This document shows positions 3,000 through 57,393 of a stretch of DNA of 64,000 nt, piece after piece. How positions within the stretch are numbered: the stretch's first letter is position 1; the number at the start of each line of letters is the position of its first letter. Location: the IMG/VR virus record IMGVR_UViG_3300034691_000069. One strand, written 5' to 3'. This stretch comes from a virus (lineage: Duplodnaviria > Heunggongvirae > Uroviricota > Caudoviricetes). Under the pieces are notes generated by a model that worked only from the letters and a program-made list of their open reading frames with translations, had not been told where the DNA came from and did not search any database. Both the position numbers and the translations under genes were made by a program.

Positions 3000-3146
3000 G
3001 AGATTATCTCGCTTGGTTTGAAGGTTGATTATAACACATCGGTGATTGAAAAGCTATATTTTGACAATAAAAAACCTGCATCGCTGCAGGTTTGGGGTTG
3101 TATTGCATGAATGAAACCATGCAATCACAAACAGTTGACTAAACAA

Positions 3147-3488
3147 CTAGTCAGTAATTATTTTAGTGATTTCGCTCCTAGATACATAGGTGCGGATGTA
3201 ATGTGGAGGGTTATCATCATCAACAGATATACCATAAACGGTATAAAGCAAAGATCCACTATGGATATCAGTCACACGAAGTATTTTGCAAATTTGACCA
3301 ATAACAAGGCAAGATGAATTTTTGCCTATTGCCACTTTGTCATTTACTGAGATCATTTTTTTTGCCTCAACCGTTGTGTGTTGATTAGGGGTTAATGCGG
3401 TATTCGAGGCTATTACGGAATTCCAGATCAGAACCAGAAACAGTAATCCAACCCACAACGGTTTCAGTATTGACTTGAACTTCACCAC
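3147..3488 (-). CDS. hypothetical protein (track ORF uses GTG start; true gene may begin at an internal ATG with GAGG RBS)
   Basis: ORF track; no RBS at annotated start; followed on minus strand by terminator at about 3075-3100. Confidence 0.35.
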   Translation of the reverse strand: MVKFKSILKPLWVGLLFLVLIWNSVIASNTALTPNQHTTVEAKKMISVNDKVAIGKNSSCLVIGQICKILRVTDIHSGSLLYTVYGISVDDDNPPHYIRTYVSRSEITKIITD

Positions 3489-3552
3489 CAGCCGCCATTG
3501 CCGCCATGAATTCTGGTGACATTACGCCATCTTCTTTGCATACTTCTTTCAT
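3385..3552 (-). CDS. small ORF (about 55 aa, MKEVCKEDGVMSPEF...) in a different frame overlapping the 5' part of track ORF 3147..3488
   Basis: ATG with AAGG RBS, placed about 30 nt downstream of a TTTTTTGATATAAT promoter (plus 3587-3600); suggests the track ORF start is over-extended. Confidence 0.35.
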   Translation of the reverse strand: MKEVCKEDGVMSPEFMAAMAAGGEVQVNTETVVGWITVSGSDLEFRNSLEYRINP

Positions 3553-3627
3553 TTTATGTTACCTTATTCTGTTCGGGAAGGTGTCCATTATATCAAAAAA
3601 TGAACACATTATCAATGTTTTTTAAAT

Positions 3628-3834
3628 TTAAGCACTCATATTACGATAACATTTGAGTCGTGCCTTGGTTTCAACCCGCTTTTTCAAGCGAGCGGCTTTC
3701 TTTTCTTCTGGTGTGCCATTCGCCATGATTTCTTTGTAATTCTTGATACGCTCCAAAGCTTCGTAAGCGATGTTGTAGGTGGAAACACGATTAAGTGCAA
3801 TGAAGAAACTTTTGATTGCCTGAAGAATTTTCAT
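3628..3834 (-). CDS. hypothetical protein (68 aa, basic C-terminus)
   Basis: ORF track. Confidence 0.45.
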   Translation of the reverse strand: MKILQAIKSFFIALNRVSTYNIAYEALERIKNYKEIMANGTPEEKKAARLKKRVETKARLKCYRNMSA

Positions 3835-3895
3835 AAATCACCGAATAGGTCATTAAGATAGATACACAGTATAACAAAATTAAGAATTTTAGACA

Positions 3896-3925
3896 ACAAA
3901 AAAGAGATCCGAAGATCTCTTTTTG
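3896..3925. terminator. bidirectional rho-independent terminator (agagatcCGAAgatctct flanked by A-run and T-run)
   Basis: second copy of the conserved hairpin; flanked by runs on both sides. Confidence 0.55.
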
Positions 3926-4063
3926 TTATTGCTTCCCTTTGGGTGTATACAGCGTTTCGATTCCACTGTATGCCCGCTGGAATTGTTGCGAGGTCAACAT
4001 CACCTACTAAAGCCCGAGGAGGACGCTAATAATATAACAAGAAGCTTGAGATGTCAACAAATT

Positions 4064-5166: not shown

Positions 5167-5279
5167 ATGTCACCTTTTTTAATTGATGTGACAGTATAAC
5201 AAAAAACAGATTTCAAAGCAATCTATTTTTATAATGGAAACAAAAAAGGCACCCTCTCGGATGCCTTTTTTACAGGATT

Positions 5280-5414
5280 TTACTCTGCGTCTTGATGACG
5301 ATTCCGGCGACGTTTCCGAAACTCGCTATCTTTTTTGTGATACTTAGCTTGTTCATTGTCTTTTTTCTTGCCACCGCGAAAACGTTCTTGTGCGTCACCG
5401 AAAGAGCCTTGCAT
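5280..5414 (-). CDS. small basic protein, 44 aa (MQGSFGDAQERFRGGKKKDNEQAKYHKKDSEFRKRRRNRHQDAE), copy 1 of 3
   Basis: ATG with AGGAGA RBS; promoter-like TTCTTGATATACT upstream (plus about 5468-5482); about 88-90% nt identity to copy at 12759-12893; below track cutoff. Confidence 0.55.
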   Translation of the reverse strand: MQGSFGDAQERFRGGKKKDNEQAKYHKKDSEFRKRRRNRHQDAE

Positions 5415-5663
5415 TTTGTATCTCCTAACCTATTAGTTTGTTTGTGTTGTTTCGTTTTGATGGGATAAGTATATCAAGAAGCGGTTTATCGGTCAATCAT
5501 TTTTTTTCAAAAAACTTCAAAACAACTTAACCCGCCACTCGTTCATATTTAACATGATATTCAATCATCGAAGCCGCCATGAAAAGAATCATACACAAGC
5601 CGAAAGAGCCAACAAGCCATAATGGAAAAGCTTCAACTGAGAACCACTCAAAAGGCTTGCACA

Positions 5664-5903: not shown

Positions 5904-6248
5904 TCAAGCTATCTCACGTTTACTCTTGAAATCGGCCAAGATGTTGTTAAATCGCTCAGATGCTTCTTTAATACCCAGAATATAAACACTGTTCAAGATA
6001 TTATATTCCTCAATAACATCAGACATAGAACTATGCAAAATACGATCACGCAAGAGTTTATAAACAGCAAACTGGTTGGTTCCCAGTTTTACATGGATTT
6101 CATAAGCAACTTGAAAGCAAGCTACTTTAAAATCACCGGGTTTATCTTCCACCAATCGACCAGACAGATCAGAAAAAGTAGCTTCCAACTCATTGGCTGC
6201 ATCATTAACAAAAACCATGTCAGACGGAGATACTGTAATTTCGACCAT
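5904..6248 (-). CDS. hypothetical protein
   Basis: ORF track. Confidence 0.5.
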   Translation of the reverse strand: MVEITVSPSDMVFVNDAANELEATFSDLSGRLVEDKPGDFKVACFQVAYEIHVKLGTNQFAVYKLLRDRILHSSMSDVIEEYNILNSVYILGIKEASERFNNILADFKSKREIA

Positions 6249-8365: not shown

Positions 8366-8442
8366 TGGTGGGACTTACAGGACTTGAACCTGTGACCTGC
8401 CGATTATGAGTCGGTTGCTCTAACCAACTGAGCTAAAGTCCC
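8366..8442 (-). tRNA. tRNA-Met (or lysidine-Ile) anticodon CAU, CCA encoded
   Basis: minus-strand read GGGACUUUAGCUCAGUUGGUUAGAGC...CUCAUAA...GGUUCAAGUCC...AAGUCCCACCA folds as canonical cloverleaf (7-bp acceptor, D-arm, CAU anticodon loop, T-loop UUCAAGU). Confidence 0.8.
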
Positions 8443-8708
8443 GTGGTTGGTGGCTTAGAAACACATCTAAACCACCCAGTATCCTCAATTATATATTCTC
8501 TATTTTAAAATATAAATACCTAGCAATCTATTCCAAGCGACTTCTAATCTCTTTGTCGAAGCCCCTACTTTGGATTTATTTGTCTACCAAAGGTCTTAGG
8601 TTCTGCCTGAATCCGAAGGATGCTAACCTACGAAAATCTCTGTTTATCTCCATCTGATTAAAGTTAGGCTATTTTAAGCCATTCAAGAGCATTGTGCAAC
8701 GTTTAATT

Positions 8709-8792
8709 TGGTGCCCGAGGCCGGACTCGAACCGGCACTCCGTAAGGAAGGGGATTTTAAGTCCCCCGCGTCTACCATTCCACCACTCGGGC
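8709..8792 (-). tRNA. tRNA-Leu anticodon UAA (long variable arm), CCA encoded
   Basis: minus-strand read GCCCGAGUGGUGGAAUGGUAGAC...CUUAAAA...long variable arm...GGUUCGAGUCCGGCCUCGGGCACCA; class II tRNA. Confidence 0.8.
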
Positions 8793-9085
8793 TTAATATG
8801 ATATGGACTACTCTATTTATATCTGCACCGAGTAGTGTTCCATACTTACAAGCTATATTGGTAACCGAAGTTATTATTCCAAAACAAGCTACTTGTAAGA
8901 AGTGCTGGTTTATTCTGGCAAGATGTTTGTTTCTCCGTTTCGTCTTGATGGGGTAATTATAGAGAAAATCGCTGTGAAGGTCAAGCATTTTTTTAGCTTA
9001 TTTTTCAAATACTTACATCAAAAATATATTGACAAAACAAAAAAAAGACCTACTGATATAGGTCTTGATGACATAAAAGAAGGTT

Positions 9086-12704: not shown

Positions 12705-12758
12705 TAAAGAAAGACTTAAGCAAGAAAGCAGTAGACTGGCTACTGCTTAGCTGGTTGA

Positions 12759-12893
12759 TTACTCTGCGTCTTGGTGACGGTTACGACGACGATTTCGAAA
12801 TTCGTTATCTTTTTTGTGAAATTTTGCTTGTTCATTGTCTTTTTTCTTGCCGCCACGAAAACGTTCTTGTGCGTCACCGAAAGAGCCTTGCAT
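12759..12893 (-). CDS. small basic protein, 44 aa (MQGSFGDAQERFRGGKKKDNEQAKFHKKDNEFRNRRRNRHQDAE), copy 2 of 3
   Basis: near-identical to 5280..5414; preceded by conserved 5'-UTR hairpin element (12927-12977) and promoter CTTTGATATACT (about 12988-13000). Confidence 0.55.
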   Translation of the reverse strand: MQGSFGDAQERFRGGKKKDNEQAKFHKKDNEFRNRRRNRHQDAE

Positions 12894-12926
12894 TTTTTGT
12901 ATCCTTTTTGACTGATTTAATTAAGT

Positions 12927-12977
12927 GAGCAATTGCAAGGGTAAAGGCTTACTGGTTTGCTCGACCCTTGCTGCTTC
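12927..12977 (-). promoter_or_regulatory. conserved 5'-UTR stem-loop element copy A (stem GCAAGGGU/ACCCUUGC, 21-nt loop) between promoter and small basic protein gene
   Basis: about 50-nt block about 85% identical to 43332-43383; stem differs by a compensatory pair (U-A versus G-C). Confidence 0.55.
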
Positions 12978-13031
12978 AACGTGGTTAGTATATCAAAGGT
13001 AATGAACCAAGACAAGCTTTTTTAAGAGGTC

Positions 13032-17819: not shown

Positions 17820-18422
17820 TTATTGTGCTGGCACCAAACCTTTTGCAATTGCCAGTGAAACCCCGATGATAGCACTGCAAGTGCGAATTTCGCCACTTTC
17901 AATCATCTTCATGGTGTCTTCACGACTGATTTTGATGATTTGAATGTCTTCATCATCAATACCATGCGAACGGTTCAGGTCGAAGCTCGAAGAGTCAACG
18001 TAGGCAAAGTAGGTATGGTGCATTTCGTTCGAGATACCAGCACTGGTGTATCCTTTGCACAGGTAACGAATATCTTCCAACTTAATCAGCATATTGGTTT
18101 CTTCTTCACCTTCACGCTGAGCGGCCAACAGTGGGTCTTCTTTCGGGTCGATATGTCCGGCAACAGGCTCGATAACCCAAGCGTCAGTTTCGTCAGGATG
18201 TTTGAAGGCACCCATGCGGAATTGCTTCACGAAAACGAATTCATCAGTCGCTTTGTCATACAAGGTCAGGCAGATAGCTGAGGGTTTAGTGAGCACATAA
18301 TGATCGATTTCTTTGGTGCCACCAAAAATACTCTCATAGGAGCCTTGCACCTGTTCCACTTGCATAAAGGAACGGTGAACATGAGAAATGATTTTTTTAA
18401 TATTGAATACTGGGATGGTCAT
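17820..18422 (-). CDS. Nudix hydrolase (ADP-ribose/NudE-like pyrophosphatase)
   Basis: Nudix box GHIDPKEDPLLAAQREGEEETN (GX5EX7REUXEEXGU). Confidence 0.75.
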   Translation of the reverse strand: MTIPVFNIKKIISHVHRSFMQVEQVQGSYESIFGGTKEIDHYVLTKPSAICLTLYDKATDEFVFVKQFRMGAFKHPDETDAWVIEPVAGHIDPKEDPLLAAQREGEEETNMLIKLEDIRYLCKGYTSAGISNEMHHTYFAYVDSSSFDLNRSHGIDDEDIQIIKISREDTMKMIESGEIRTCSAIIGVSLAIAKGLVPAQ

Positions 18423-18481
18423 AAAGGTGAAACTCCTGAATAATTATAGTGTCTTGCTAATAGCTATATTCTACACAATTG

Positions 18482-18685
18482 TTACCAATATAGAAAGCCT
18501 TTTCGTTCTTCTTTTGACTCTCGCATGACAGGCAATTTCATGGGTTCGTTATCAACATGCCCACCAAAACCACCACGGGGAAAATCAACATGAAGATCAC
18601 TAGAAACAGCAAACTTAACACTGGAAATTTTACCATTTACTGTAAGATGGACAACACCTTCGCGTTTAACTGTTTTATTGGTCAT
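18482..18685 (-). CDS. hypothetical protein (67 aa)
   Basis: ORF track. Confidence 0.45.
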   Translation of the reverse strand: MTNKTVKREGVVHLTVNGKISSVKFAVSSDLHVDFPRGGFGGHVDNEPMKLPVMRESKEERKGFLYW

Positions 18686-18755
18686 GTAGATGTAACTCCT
18701 GATTGATAAGCTATTATAACCAAAAAACCATGTTTTGGCAACAACTTCCTATGAC

Positions 18756-19562
18756 TTAGATTTCAATCATGTCTAAAAGAAGCTTATCACGCTGAGTTGG
18801 AATGGTAGCGGGTTTAACGCCAGTCATAAAACCAATCAAATCGACAGTCAGATTTTTAAAAAGGTCATCCCGAGTGACGACTTTAAATTTAGTCATCAAT
18901 TCATCAGTTTTCATAGGTGTGACGGTAAAAACAGATCCAGATTCACTGGGATGGTAATTGTAATACAGATTTTCATTGTCATAACCTACAAAAACACTAA
19001 CTTTTTCATTTTCGTAAATCGAACCAACTTCAAAACGGCAAATGAAAATATCATCGTGGCCTTTTCGTTTTAAAATTTGTGTGCAATGATCAAAAGCACT
19101 ATTTTTGTAGTAAGTGCTACGTTGAAATTCATAAACATGATGCAACGTGCCTTTTTTACTTTGAATAAGCCCGATTGAATTATCCATCATGACTGATTCA
19201 TTTTTACTGGCTGGATAGTAATAAGCCGCCATATAAGCCACTTGGAGCACTTGATTGCTCAAATCCAAGAACTTATCAGGATAGGTAATGTTAAGGGATT
19301 CAACATAATTATTATTGAATAGCATGACAGCATCACGCTTATCAGACAAAATGCCAATGTCCTCACCCGCATGACGAAGAAGGTCAAAGTCACTATCAAC
19401 AAAAAAACGATTCCACGTTTTACGGTTAGGCGTGGCCTTCATCATATCCCGCATACACCAAGCCAAACGATTATTGACAGGACAGAGTGCATTGATATAG
19501 AAACTATCAATCTTGTCTGAAAAATATTTTCGCGTTGCGGTAATGGGATTGCTGATAGCCAT
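18756..19562 (-). CDS. hypothetical protein (start moved to MAISNPITA..., strong AGGAGGA RBS)
   Basis: ORF track with start correction. Confidence 0.55.
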   Translation of the reverse strand: MAISNPITATRKYFSDKIDSFYINALCPVNNRLAWCMRDMMKATPNRKTWNRFFVDSDFDLLRHAGEDIGILSDKRDAVMLFNNNYVESLNITYPDKFLDLSNQVLQVAYMAAYYYPASKNESVMMDNSIGLIQSKKGTLHHVYEFQRSTYYKNSAFDHCTQILKRKGHDDIFICRFEVGSIYENEKVSVFVGYDNENLYYNYHPSESGSVFTVTPMKTDELMTKFKVVTRDDLFKNLTVDLIGFMTGVKPATIPTQRDKLLLDMIEI

Positions 19563-28129: not shown

Positions 28130-28201
28130 TTTTGATTTCCTTCACTTCGTTGATTTGATGGGTGTAGTATACCGAAAAACTCTTATTTGGACAAGCTTTT
28201 T

Positions 28202-31124: not shown

Positions 31125-32246
31125 TTACTCGGGGATAGGCACTTGTTTACGAGCAAACACCATGATAGCGGCTTGTTTGTAATCAATTTCATCACCCGAA
31201 AACTTGCTCATCAACACCGACAGAAGCAATGGAGCCACTTCTTTGGCTTTACGAGCGTAATCGCCACGTTCCAAACCTTTATGCTCATCGTAGAAGCTGT
31301 CAACCGTGCGAACAAGGTAATGGTAGCTTTTACGGGCGTAGTCTTCGACTTCATCCAAGCGAGCCAGAATTTCAGCCAGTGGGAAATTATCGCTGTGTGT
31401 CCGGTAGTGATACAACGAACGGATTTCATCCAGAATTTCATGAAGGGTTGCTTCATAAATAACCTGACGTTCCTTCGAACGATCCTGAATGTTGACCACT
31501 GCCGACATTTTCAGGTAAGGAATGGTCTTGACCTTATACATGTCAGGGCCGATTTCAATCACATAACCTTCGATATCGGGGTCATTCACGTTGATTTCAT
31601 TAACGGGAATACGCTTCACCAGATGGGCAGCAATGACCGGATATTCTGCGGCAAATTCTGCCGAACGAATGTCCACATAAGCCCCTGTGTTCATGTCGCG
31701 GGCTTTCAACACATGAACTTCGTAGGTAGTGTATTCGATGAAAACACGGTTTTTCGGCGTGGTCAGTTCCAAGTCAACCGAAACACCTGTGCGGGTCAGC
31801 CGTTCAACGTCTGCGTGCAATTCTGGACTGATAGACTGTTCAACAAGGCCGTAATCAGCAAACGTAGGCTTCTTTTTACTCTTGTAGTAAAGAGTATCAT
31901 TGATCGGAGAAATATAGCTGGTGAGCAACGAGCCATCGGGTTTCAGATAAGCATGGTCGGCTTCTTCTGGCTTCACCTTTTGCGTTTCAGGGGTTTCGCC
32001 CAAGGAAAAGAATTTCTGCATTGGCAATGCCACCAGCATTGGCTCAGAACCGCCCATATAGAACATGACACCACGGCAATCCTTAGCACCCGGAAGTTTG
32101 AATTCGGAATGCTTTGGAATGTCATAGTTGAAGACACGGTAAGTCCCGCCGTCTACCGCCGAGATTTCATCACGGTATTTGAAAGACCCCGGATTAGTCA
32201 CCAGCAGGTGCATCAGTTGGGCATACAGTTCTTGTTGATAAGTCAT
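31125..32246 (-). CDS. rnlA: RNA ligase 1 (T4 gp63/Rnl1 homolog); start taken at second Met (GGAG RBS)
   Basis: similarity to T4 Rnl1 including YR(V/I)F.Y...LP...CRG(V/I)MF, nucleotidyltransferase motif I KPDGSL and motif IV EGYVI; antisense 373-aa track ORF is a shadow. Confidence 0.8.
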   Translation of the reverse strand: MTYQQELYAQLMHLLVTNPGSFKYRDEISAVDGGTYRVFNYDIPKHSEFKLPGAKDCRGVMFYMGGSEPMLVALPMQKFFSLGETPETQKVKPEEADHAYLKPDGSLLTSYISPINDTLYYKSKKKPTFADYGLVEQSISPELHADVERLTRTGVSVDLELTTPKNRVFIEYTTYEVHVLKARDMNTGAYVDIRSAEFAAEYPVIAAHLVKRIPVNEINVNDPDIEGYVIEIGPDMYKVKTIPYLKMSAVVNIQDRSKERQVIYEATLHEILDEIRSLYHYRTHSDNFPLAEILARLDEVEDYARKSYHYLVRTVDSFYDEHKGLERGDYARKAKEVAPLLLSVLMSKFSGDEIDYKQAAIMVFARKQVPIPE

Positions 32247-32302
32247 GTGAATCTCCATGATTAAATTGTCTGAATCTATTATATCAAAAACTGATTTTTA
32301 AT

Positions 32303-33216: not shown

Positions 33217-34338
33217 TTAAACGGGAGCGGACAAGTCGCCAAGCTCAATTTGTTCCAACGACCAATCAACCAGATGGTTTTTAGAGTAGTGATACAGGTA
33301 GTCGTTTTTGTGACCACGAATTGCCCCCATAACAAAACCAAAGTGTTTGTGGCCTTTGAGTTGGATTGCTGCAGTTTTCACGTCAACACCTTGGAATGCA
33401 GCAGCAATATCATCAACCTCTTTCGACAACGCTTCAATCGAAGCTTTGATAGCGTCATTGATACGATAAATTTCACTCAAATCAGCCGTTGGCGAGTTTA
33501 GCGACAAATAAGCAATGTAATCATCAAGTTTTTCTTCGACCACCAAACGAGCAATATCACGTTCACGAACAAAGCTAACCGCATGATGGAGATTCATATA
33601 CCATTTGGTTTTGATTTTGATCATGTTACCGTTAACGAATTGAATAACATAGCCTTCAATCCCTTCAACCGTGTTCAGCGACTTCAAAAGGGAAGCCAAA
33701 TCAAATTCTTCACCAAACAGTGGCTTGTTAACAGGAATATCAAACAACAACGCCAGTTGGTCTTTTTCAGCAGGCATTAAGTAATCGCCTGTGATGTTGT
33801 GACGAACATGAAGCAATGTCATGTTGTCTTCGTCATAACGCAAAACGATACGATGCTTTGGCGAAGTGAATTCAAAAATTGGCGTCAGTTGGGCCTGAGA
33901 GCAATATTTGGTGAACTCGTAGTATTTCTGGTTACGAGAGACAAAGCCTTCTGCCGAAACAGCCACATCCGATTTGAAAGACTTCTTGGACTTAGCAAAG
34001 AATTCGCCTTTGAACAGACCTGTGGTAATCATGGAGCCATCCATTTTATCAAACCCGGCAACCATAGTGTTCCAATCCAAAACGGCTGGCTGGACTTCTG
34101 CACGCTCTGCCAAGTTGAAGAATTTGTGCAATGGACGCGACAGTATTTTACCGTTGTCGTCAAAGGTAATACCGCGAGCTTCCTTTTCAACCGGAGTGTT
34201 GAAAGAGTCACCGTTGCTGATGTTGTAGCAAACGATGTCGGCACCGTTATCCTGTTTGTTAACAGAAATATAGGCACGGTCTTTGATATGAGGAATCATA
34301 TCATCAAGGGTTTCAATACGGGGGAAGATGCTGGACAT
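33217..34338 (-). CDS. second Rnl1-family RNA ligase (paralog of rnlA, diverged)
   Basis: EARGITFDDNGKILSRPLHKFFNL (cf. T4 Rnl1 ECRGIMFEMDG...RPMEKFFNL), motif I KMDGSM, motif IV GIEGYVIQF...IKIKTKWY. Confidence 0.7.
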   Translation of the reverse strand: MSSIFPRIETLDDMIPHIKDRAYISVNKQDNGADIVCYNISNGDSFNTPVEKEARGITFDDNGKILSRPLHKFFNLAERAEVQPAVLDWNTMVAGFDKMDGSMITTGLFKGEFFAKSKKSFKSDVAVSAEGFVSRNQKYYEFTKYCSQAQLTPIFEFTSPKHRIVLRYDEDNMTLLHVRHNITGDYLMPAEKDQLALLFDIPVNKPLFGEEFDLASLLKSLNTVEGIEGYVIQFVNGNMIKIKTKWYMNLHHAVSFVRERDIARLVVEEKLDDYIAYLSLNSPTADLSEIYRINDAIKASIEALSKEVDDIAAAFQGVDVKTAAIQLKGHKHFGFVMGAIRGHKNDYLYHYSKNHLVDWSLEQIELGDLSAPV

Positions 34339-56870: not shown

Positions 56871-57063
56871 TATCGTATTCTCCTAATATTTAGTTGTTAA
56901 CAACACAATCTAGATTGCATTAGTTGCTTTAATTATAATGATATAAAGTATTAATAATTTACCACAGTGATGTAAAAAGTCAATAAATAATGAAAATGAT
57001 TATCATTACACAATGTAAAAAAGTAATAAAAAAACCACTCGAAAGTGGTCTTAGTGTATAAAG

Positions 57064-57133
57064 GCTGTATGATGGGATTCGAACCCACGACTACCGTTTT
57101 TCGACGGAGTTCTGCCGACTGAACTACAAACAG
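57064..57133 (-). tRNA. tRNA-like element with canonical acceptor/D/T arms but aberrant anticodon arm (3-4 bp stem, 6-8 nt loop UCGAAAAA); no encoded CCA
   Basis: minus-strand read CUGUUUG-UA-GUUC-AGUCGGCA-GAAC-...-GUGGG-UUCGAAU-CCCAU-CAUACAG; T-loop GGUUCGAAUCC perfect. Confidence 0.45.
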
Positions 57134-57151: not shown

Positions 57152-57283
57152 TTATTCGTTAACGTGACGATCACGACGCTTCTTTCGCCAGTTCTTGTCT
57201 TGCTCATGAGTTTTTGCTTTTTCTGTGTCACGTTTTTTGCCACCACGGAAACGTTCTGTTGCGTCACCAAATGAACCTTGCAT
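57152..57283 (-). CDS. small basic protein, 43 aa (MQGSFGDATERFRGGKKRDTEKAKTHEQDKNWRKKRRDRHVNE), copy 3 of 3 (diverged); track ORF over-extended upstream
   Basis: homologous to 5280..5414 and 12759..12893; internal ATG with AAGG RBS. Confidence 0.5.
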   Translation of the reverse strand: MQGSFGDATERFRGGKKRDTEKAKTHEQDKNWRKKRRDRHVNE

Positions 57284-57393
57284 AATATAAATACCTTTGT
57301 TTATTAGACTTCTATTATACAACAAAAAACACATTAAGTAAATAGCAAAAATGATATTTTTTTAAAACTTTTTAATGATGCGAAAATATTCCA

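Follow-up and report, generated by a model that had tools for sequence, protein, structure and literature searches.

The described systems closest in kind to the genes reported here are those of known small basic phage peptides, namely the internal proteins of bacteriophage T4 and the arginine-rich-motif (ARM) RNA-binding peptides, yet the family shows detectable homology to none of them. It is represented by three minus-strand copies in a 64,000-nucleotide stretch of a virus of the Caudoviricetes (IMG/VR virus record IMGVR_UViG_3300034691_000069), the whole of which is referred to below as the window. An earlier note on this DNA had pointed to a triplicated arginine- and lysine-rich protein gene missed by a cut-off of 60 amino acids (aa) for open reading frames (ORFs), and the copies are indeed real, overlooked small protein genes.

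In T4, the capsid-targeting sequences are N-terminal propeptides of 10–20 aa and the sole conserved part of the internal proteins, of which about 1000 molecules are packaged per head (PMC3012670, PMC5694885). As with T4 IPI, IPII and IPIII, the present family consists of several basic paralogues that share an N-terminus of about ten residues ending in x-E, each gene has its own σ70-like promoter of the T4 early type, and tRNA genes are found among the genes on that strand. The T4 proteins are, however, 95–193 aa in length as against 44 aa here, and there is no sequence similarity between the two groups. Moreover, the whole body of the protein is conserved in our family, the shared N-terminus is not found on other bodies, and a location in the virion is putative.

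The ARM peptides include the N-termini of the N proteins of phages lambda and P22, and HIV Rev and Tat. Both they and the present family have a short helical arginine-rich stretch (RKRRRNRH here, RRNRRRR in Rev) that is preceded by an aromatic residue, and both are likely to be disordered until bound. In contrast to the ARM peptides, to which it is not homologous, the motif here is C-terminal in a free-standing 44-aa protein with an invariant N-terminal block, and no boxB-like or Rev response element (RRE)-like target was identified for the family.

Two further comparisons can be made. The T4 genes trna.2, trna.3 and trna.4 are likewise small protein genes situated between an early-type promoter and same-strand tRNA genes, but they are unrelated in sequence, single-copy and 0.1–1 kb from the first tRNA, whereas here one conserved family is found 7–32 nucleotides (nt) upstream of different tRNAs in five lineages. 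Small ribosomal proteins, such as bL34 (44–46 aa) and the bS21 of some huge phages, resemble the family in being basic and in having high-expression signals and translation-related neighbours. On account of its matching length, its M..[ST]F start and the RRR near its end, bL34 was considered as a relative and rejected: alignment with E. coli bL34 in hhalign gave a probability of 0.07%, there was no Pfam or NCBIfam match even at E ≤ 10 and no PDB match, and the family has eight acidic residues where bL34 has essentially none.

Results

The copies are genuine genes under purifying selection

Copy 1 lies at 5280–5414 (−) and encodes 44 aa plus a stop codon, with the translation MQGSFGDAQERFRGGKKKDNEQAKYHKKDSEFRKRRRNRHQDAE; it has orthologues with the same flanks in the related loci L001b and L010. 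Copy 2, at 12759–12893 (−), also encodes 44 aa plus a stop codon, with three residues changed relative to copy 1, and shares its flanks with the orthologue L001a. Both L001a and L001b are carried by L001, a related 1.85-Mb metagenome contig that is syntenic with the window. Copy 3, at 57152–57283 (−), encodes 43 aa plus a stop codon (MQGSFGDATERFRGGKKRDTEKAKTHEQDKNWRKKRRDRHVNE); it is about 68–70% identical to the other copies, and the identical protein sequence occurs on seven metagenome contigs. These coordinates, the minus strand and the translations are exactly those given in the earlier note. An in-frame ATG is present upstream of copy 3 at 57334 and falls inside the promoter, but since all homologues begin with MQGS, the true start of this copy is 57283. 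When the window was searched by tblastn with each peptide, the three loci alone were returned, at E values of 1e-17 to 1e-28, and these are far beyond chance because all other matches had E > 0.1.

Across 21 homologues the sense frame is open in 21/21, and the remaining frames are open in some only. Comparison of the 210 pairs gave a mean proportion of synonymous differences (pS) of 0.66 and of non-synonymous differences (pN) of 0.19. Copies 1 and 2 are identical at 122 of 135 nucleotides (90.4%), which agrees with the 88–90% first reported for them, but this likeness does not extend to synonymous sites as had been claimed: 10 of the 13 differing codons are synonymous, and by the Nei-Gojobori method 44% of synonymous sites differ as against 3% of non-synonymous sites (pS 0.44, pN 0.03), corresponding to rates dS of 0.66 and dN of 0.03. 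We conclude that the ORFs of the family are genuine genes under strong purifying selection. Antisense ORFs, for example that at 5292–5468 on the plus strand, are open in only some homologues and were dismissed as composition artefacts.

The paralogues are old and have been retained across genomes

The likeness of copies 1 and 2 had been attributed in the earlier note to recent duplication or ongoing gene conversion. The copies would then be young, effectively neutral duplicates homogenised by gene conversion; another alternative is that they are chance ORFs in non-coding spacers. Beside the 90.4% nucleotide identity there is the fact that relatives do duplicate such cassettes. Two loci about 56 kb apart on contig Ga0308157_10000028 (L024 4945–5175 and L025 4945–5175) share a 231-bp block, extending over the leader, CDS and terminator, that is 90.5% identical and encodes identical proteins, with no DNA similarity outside it. 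Even these two differ, however, at 22/231 nt despite having the same protein, and for copies 1 and 2 the dS is more than an order of magnitude above the dN, yet each has a closer orthologue elsewhere: the dS is 0.19 between copy 1 and L001b, and 0.36 between copy 2 and L001a. About 80 homologue clusters with the same start, length and stop also count against young duplicates and chance ORFs alike, and we give this explanation next to no chance of being correct. Since copy 1 is closer to L001b and copy 2 to L001a, the duplication must be older than the separation of these genomes; identity of some 90% at the nucleotide level is accounted for by constraint at the protein level on a short gene with few synonymous sites. 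As the likeness of L024 and L025 spans precisely leader to terminator, the conserved, and possibly duplicating, unit is a transcript-sized cassette.

Copies are also more numerous than the window alone indicates. The earlier count of three holds within the window but not as a total: on a contig syntenic with it, a 31-kb segment carries at least four copies, and two of these map just past the window's left edge. At least five different copies are spread over at least 285 kb of a 1.86-Mb contig, and a 678-kb contig has four. Several recurrent types of paralogue can be defined by their flanks, each of them present in several genomes: a copy-1 type with a CA-rich leader, a copy-2 type with a structured leader, a copy-3 type with its own promoter block, and several others. 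We conclude that the paralogues are old and have been retained across genomes. A conserved partner gene was also considered and rejected: in two contexts an 82-aa gene comes after the family gene, but these two downstream genes are not related, and no neighbouring protein gene is conserved.

Family genes are repeatedly the first cistron of tRNA transcription units

Adjacency to tRNA genes was counted over 30 distinct family genes for which the downstream sequence was long enough. Seven of the 30, belonging to five lineages, have a same-strand tRNA or tRNA-like gene 7–32 nt downstream, compared with 4/756 other ORFs in the same loci. Within 5 kb, a same-strand tRNA is found for 17/30, including copies 1 and 2, which bracket tRNA-Leu(TAA) and tRNA-Met(CAT) at 8366–8792 (−), copy 2 lying 4 kb upstream of this pair and copy 1 lying 3 kb downstream. 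The genes that follow immediately differ between the five lineages. A tRNA-like element with a 6-nt anticodon loop follows copy 3 and its orthologues; tRNA-Arg(TCT) follows L018 in a second lineage and, in a third, both family gene 4543 of locus L046 and family gene 4776 of L050; tRNA-Leu(TAA) follows gene 3001 of L046; and another tRNA-like element, of the 'ga' type, follows gene 6001 of L050, at about position 6134 of that locus.

The element after copy 3, at 57063–57133 (−), was found by ARAGORN and matches the Rfam tRNA model with 44 bits. It begins 18 nt past the stop codon of copy 3 and belongs to the same transcription unit, which is closed by a terminator at 57031–57052 (−); the description of copy 3 as a diverged copy adjoining a tRNA-like element was thus accurate. 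The element, to which ARAGORN assigns the anticodon 'aa', occurs again at L012 5148–5218 and L026 2859–2929. In the L012 orthologue the anticodon stem shows a compensatory change from C-G to U-A, so the element is probably functional. As locus L017 has a promoter, gene and terminator of the copy-3 type without the element, the latter represents an insertion between stop codon and terminator. These results show that tRNA linkage, described here for the first time, is a property of the whole family and not a curiosity of copy 3, and that transcription units of tRNAs or tRNA-like elements repeatedly have the family gene as their 5′ cistron.

A stand-alone family of short, basic, helical proteins

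A profile search of 5.8 billion clustered proteins identified 26 homologue clusters, a number that rose to 79 with a broader alignment, and an exhaustive HMMER search of 1.84e9 representatives gave 19 matches, 17 of them small family proteins and two of them unrelated repeat proteins. Apart from miscalled N-terminal extensions, family members are all stand-alone proteins of 41–45 aa, so that the copies are not fragments of a longer gene in relatives, a possibility raised at the outset; the long cluster members P0034 and P0039, which might have represented such a gene, are unrelated. Versions of 56–78 aa are gene calls in which the conserved leader has been translated, and in copy 1 a TAG closes that frame.

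The consensus is MQGS[FYH]xDxxE[RK]F..(K)K.D.........D..[FW]R..R[RQ]NRH...., in which M1, Q2, S4 and R36 are invariant and G3, D7, E10, F12, D19, R33, R39 and H40 are nearly so. D29 and N38 are further conserved residues, and conservation continues past residue 10 through R11, F12, G14, K16 and D19. Residues 33–40 (R-x-R/K-R-R/Q-N-R-H) are nearly invariant and are helical in both of the AlphaFold2 models obtained. With moderate confidence (predicted local distance difference test scores of 72–76 with a 3-sequence or a 25-sequence alignment), these models show a single helix from residue 5 to residue 38 or 42, and a peak in column conservation at a periodicity of 100 degrees (p about 0.05) lends weak support to one conserved helical face. 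An RGG box was ruled out, as the GG at residues 14–15 is not conserved across the wider family. The protein has 13–14 lysine and arginine residues and eight aspartate and glutamate residues, giving an isoelectric point (pI) of about 10.3 and a net charge of about +6. The earlier characterisation of the product as very basic is therefore correct, while its suggested binding of nucleic acid is plausible.

Profile searches with the 44-aa protein, which had been proposed as a means of classifying it, assigned it to no known family: no meaningful match came from scans of Pfam, PHROGs, NCBIfam and PADLOC at E ≤ 10, and none at all from a profile search of the PDB with the family. No homologue was found by tblastn and blastn against 50,697 phage records, the only matches being short chance ones of 30–46 nt. 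Across the databases searched, the family is unannotated and limited to an uncultured clade of huge phages.

Among the 185,579 species representatives of GTDB there is one family member only, L059. It is located on DJWL01000096.1, a phage-like contig of 46,511 bp in the metagenome-assembled genome (MAG) 'Flavobacteriaceae bacterium UBA6231', and has the same style of promoter and Shine-Dalgarno (SD) sequence; tRNA-Leu(TAA) and tRNA-Arg(TCT) lie 0.5–1.4 kb downstream of the family gene. The contig probably belongs to a phage and was binned with a bacterial MAG, so it is weak evidence at best as to the host.

Sequence signals that suggest high expression

The SD-like sequence and σ70-like site that are found at each of the three copies, the promoters being consensus matches only, agree with the earlier assignment of a ribosome-binding site and an own promoter to every copy. 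At copy 1, the promoter-like site (5468–5507, −) has the form TTGACC-17-(TG)ATATACT (5496–5468), which matches the consensus at 10/12 positions and includes the TG, and an A8 tract (5500–5507) lies directly upstream of the −35 element. It is followed by a CA-rich, unstructured and conserved 5′ leader (CAUCAAAACGAAACAACACAA ... GGUUAGGAGAUACAAA) at 5415–5462 (−), with a minimum free energy (MFE) of −0.6 kcal/mol and the SD sequence AGGAG at 5422–5426. An intrinsic terminator hairpin, AAAAAAGGCAUCC-GAGA-GGGUGCCUUUUUU, follows the gene at 5241–5272 (−); its MFE is −19.4 kcal/mol (z = −5.1), and the stem is kept in L001b, L005, L008, L010, L011 and L024.

Copy 2 is preceded by a promoter-like site and leader at 12894–13015 (−), comprising TTGTCT-17-(TG)ATATACT (13015–12987), a structured leader of about 95 nt and AAGGA at 12902–12906. 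This leader (12894–12980), common to copy 2 and L001a in a comparison of two sequences only, contains a hairpin CAAGGGU...ACCCUUG with a free energy of −18.8 kcal/mol (z = −2.0). At gathering thresholds Rfam returned only the three tRNA matches, and the copy 2 leader thus has no Rfam family. A weak hairpin lies 3′ of the gene at 12726–12748 (−). A gene for an 82-aa membrane protein starts about 70 nt past the stop codon of copy 2 and, since it has no promoter-like site of its own, is probably co-transcribed with it. At copy 3, the promoter-like site and short leader (57284–57342, −) consist of TTTACT-17-TATAAT (57342–57314) and AAGGT (57293–57297), and the promoter block ATATCATTTTTGCTATTTACTTAAT is kept in L012 and L017.

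In 10 copy-1-type loci, the leader, reckoned from the putative start site up to the ATG, has a mean pairwise identity of 80%, compared with 55% at third positions of the coding sequence (CDS) and 50% further upstream of the leader in the same loci, showing that this leader is conserved beyond neutral expectation. It contains two invariant blocks, CCCATCAAAACGAAACAACACAA and GTTAGGAGATACAA, and is C-rich, G-poor and unstructured; the copy 1 leader motif is unique, with no other occurrence in the window. Several of the promoters have an A-tract directly upstream of a −35 element TTGACC or (G/T)CTTTACA, an arrangement that is conserved in orthologous loci and is the form of T4 early promoters, as found upstream of T4 ipI, ipII and ipIII. 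Codon usage is strongly biased. None of the 145 arginine codons in the 21 homologues is AGA or AGG, as against 19% in other genes of the window, while GGT and GGC make up 98% of glycine codons and CAA 92% of glutamine codons in the family. The promoters, the unstructured and conserved leader, the strong SD sequence, the codon bias and the strong terminators together suggest that the family genes are probably very highly expressed. The cassette transcripts would be in the sense orientation, starting near CCCAUCAAAA and ending at the terminators.

The motif TATAMT-N4-CCATCAA, made up of a −10 hexamer and the start region, was seen 17 times in the window with up to two mismatches, compared with 5.2 expected occurrences. 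Sites are found at 5457–5473, 8945–8961 and 28155–28171, all on the minus strand, in addition to near-matches, and one is upstream of tRNA-Leu; T4 ipI has a similar TACTAT-TACCTCATCAAAA. This suggests that the motif may be a phage-specific consensus of early promoter and initial transcript.

Genomic setting and relatives

Of the roughly 120 small genes in the window, 102 are encoded by the minus strand, and the coding density is 82%. Twelve Pfam families were matched by its 84 proteins of at least 95 aa, including HNH, NUDIX, RNase_T, GNAT, SPFH, pentapeptide repeats, DUF2807 and two RNA ligases of the T4 Rnl1 type; other proteins match an endonuclease VII, a NudE-like protein and several PHROGs of unknown function. 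The ligase genes, at 31125–32258 (−) and 33217–34338 (−), are 1 kb apart and match PF09511 with E values of 2e-7 and 3e-27. For the second ligase, the best match in a cultured phage is that in the Ralstonia jumbo phage RsoM2USA, at 41.7% identity. Relatives carry Tpt1 (PTS_2-RNA; L005 189–833), two thymidine kinases and Phage_T4_Y00F. The label 'T4-like' that the DNA had been given fits its T4-type accessory genes and T4-early-like promoters, but not its descent: no GenBank phage gave a DNA match to the window, and the best cultured protein match is the 41.7% just mentioned. To judge from sequence, the window is an accessory, early-looking region of an uncultured huge phage that is not a relative of T4 taxonomically.

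The IMG/VR relatives are on contigs of 64–437 kb, and a Lake Mendota co-assembly is one sample that carries the family. Family members, together with phage-like gene arrays syntenic with the window, were also seen on metagenome contigs of 1.54–1.92 Mb. These include Ga0308423_1259934 (L001/L047; 1,851,360 bp), Ga0308158_10000001 (L010–L012, L015 and L023; 1,859,102 bp), ERZ27281805 k141_522346 (L056; 1,843,594 bp), and Ga0247725_1000001 (L041/L050) and Ga0310131_000001 (L053), both of 1,539,155 bp. The occurrence of this last contig in two samples, with identical size and different coordinates, suggests a closed replicon. The largest published phage genome that we found is 841 kb (bioRxiv 10.1101/2025.01.14.633092), and the 1.54–1.92-Mb contigs may be bacterial and include a phage-like region of very large size, or may be phage-like replicons that are far larger. 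On L001, at 17940–19256 (−) (L047 1–123), there is a 438-aa gene on the opposite strand with PAS and MCPsignal domains, which is chemoreceptor-like and is flanked by genes that in the window adjoin small ORFs; its syntenic place in the window is at about 3000–4060, where there is no ORF of that size.

Discussion

We infer, tentatively and well short of calling it probable, that the family product is an arginine-rich peptide, present in abundance, that binds RNA and is tied to phage tRNA and translation. The phage-specific proteins of 41–45 aa are each predicted to form one long, highly charged α-helix, with the invariant block MQGS-aromatic-x-D-x-x-E-[RK]-F at its N-terminus and the arginine-rich [FW]-R-x-x-R-[RQ]-N-R-H at its C-terminal end. 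Each paralogue occupies its own compact cassette of host-type (T4-early-like) promoter, leader, strong SD sequence, CDS and terminator, from which the peptide would be produced very abundantly as soon as infection begins, the several copies serving dosage and a differently regulated supply. It would then act in trans as an arginine-rich-motif RNA binder on a conserved structured RNA of the translation apparatus, that is, phage or host tRNA or the ribosome, and might chaperone or shield phage tRNAs or bias ribosomes. RNA is favoured as the partner because the cassettes adjoin tRNA genes and genes of tRNA-repair enzymes (the two Rnl1 ligases, and Tpt1 in L005). In addition, the constraint on the sequence is tighter than would be expected of a generic polycation or DNA counter-ion, which argues for a conserved structured partner.

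Several observations weigh against this interpretation. Promoterless tRNA genes may simply settle in the 3′ untranslated regions of the strongest short transcription units, and the L017 cassette is the same without its tRNA-like insert. That the downstream tRNAs differ in kind speaks against a specific tRNA partner. Conserved acidic residues and an invariant MQGS are atypical of arginine-rich RNA-binding peptides, and Pfam, NCBIfam, the PDB and the hhalign comparison with bL34 revealed no similarity to known RNA-binding or ribosomal proteins. As RNA targets, the only candidates are the nearby tRNAs and tRNA-like elements and the gene's own terminator hairpin; the hairpin was discarded as a recurrent target of the protein, having a single occurrence in the window. 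T4 cef, a possible tRNA-processing analogue, was looked for in two T4 regions and not found, and this idea was dropped.

Internal-protein-like cargo and modulators of the ribosome or nucleoid, which the earlier note put forward, are still candidate roles. The main rival, unlikely in our judgement, is that the product is a head peptide akin to the T4 internal proteins, the nearly invariant N-terminal decapeptide MQGSFGDAxE being a capsid-targeting sequence that routes it to the core of the prohead. It would be cleaved by the prohead protease behind Glu10, at a site of the A-x-E type, and the remaining peptide of 33–34 aa, with a net charge of +7/+8, would stay on the packaged DNA and be injected with it. 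Giant-phage prohead proteases cut at A-X-E, S/A/G-X-E and S/A/G/T-X-E sites (PMC5694885), with (L/I)-x-E being the site in T4. Residues 8–10 of the family fit the former, reading [A/S/G/T/M]-x-E in nearly all members, although this is the presence of a motif with cleavage putative, and a few members have D or Q at position 10. T4 ipII and ipIII both start with MKTYQEFIAE, likewise a 10-mer ending in x-E, and removal of residues 1–10 from our protein would raise its net charge to the value given and its pI to about 11. The T4 ip genes also flank the tRNA cluster on the same strand (ipI 1.06 kb upstream, ipIII and ipII 4.5 kb downstream), and a scan found TTTACA-17-TAnnnT sites at ipI and ipII, with a similar GTTTAC...TAGTAT at ipIII read from the upstream sequence, so neither a σ70-type promoter nor the company of tRNA genes conflicts with a head protein. 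The several paralogues and the high expression would moreover suit a stoichiometric component of the virion. The distribution of the tag fits less well, however, since it is found on one protein body only: about 0.5 Mb of related sequence holds 42 ORFs that start with MQGS, and every one of them is a family member. The C-terminal motif is as well conserved as the N-terminus, with conservation running past the supposed cleavage site, and T4 internal proteins evolve fast whereas the 44-aa family is tightly constrained. Neither PHROGs nor tblastn against the 50,697 phage records revealed similarity to internal proteins, and the window and the fetched loci contain no capsid or protease gene for comparison.

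The same charge and long predicted helix, with very high and early expression signals, paralogues consistent with a need for dosage and related contigs of 0.29–0.68 Mb or larger, could instead denote a histone-like or protamine-like DNA-binding peptide that coats or compacts a large replicating phage genome or disrupts the host nucleoid. We consider this less likely again, given that generic DNA-coating proteins tolerate change whereas specific polar and aromatic positions are here near-invariant across synonymously saturated genomes, that the tRNA linkage would be left unexplained, and that Pfam, PHROGs, the PDB and NCBIfam gave no match to HU, IHF, TF1 or any other nucleoid protein. That linkage is taken at face value in a proposal that we hold to be doubtful, namely that the family is a dedicated 'tRNA-operon protein' of huge phages, a helix deliberately co-transcribed with phage tRNAs and tRNA-like decoys that would bind them or the ribosome. 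It might, for instance, keep host anticodon nucleases off the phage tRNAs or pass these on to the ribosome, forming a hitherto unrecognised tRNA-protection module with the RNA ligases and Tpt1; in one variant, translation of the ORF would gate maturation of the tRNA 7–32 nt downstream. Control in cis could also be exerted by a leader or arrest peptide, where translation of the ORF, perhaps slowed at the C-terminal RxxRRNRH, would control tRNA maturation, terminator read-through or the access of Rho to the C-rich unstructured leader. The position of the gene as first cistron 7–32 nt upstream of tRNA or tRNA-like genes in five lineages is consistent with such a role, as are the tightly held length of 41–45 aa, the conserved basic motif 4–5 residues before the stop codon and the C-rich, G-poor, unstructured character of the leader. 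The spacing from the stop codon is variable, however (7–32 nt to tRNAs and about 9–25 nt to terminators), and many of the copies, copy 1 among them, form closed monocistronic cassettes in which there is nothing to regulate. Selection at the amino acid level acts over the whole peptide, the N-terminus being equally conserved, and several paralogues, strong codon bias and a strong SD sequence are more typical of an abundant product; a cis-acting role thus appears quite improbable.

Whichever function applies, huge phages are full of tiny unannotated genes of which very few are clearly functional, and this family is among those few. It is singled out by purifying selection, by at least four old paralogues per genome, by the hallmarks of high expression and by its tRNA units in five lineages. 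The results indicate that some of the most strongly constrained genes of such genomes escape notice when ORFs are cut off at 60 aa, and they carry the lesson that short paralogues with high nucleotide identity need not be recent duplicates. The 44-aa peptide is a well-defined and cheaply synthesised candidate through which to study how very large phages handle tRNAs, ribosomes or packaged DNA.

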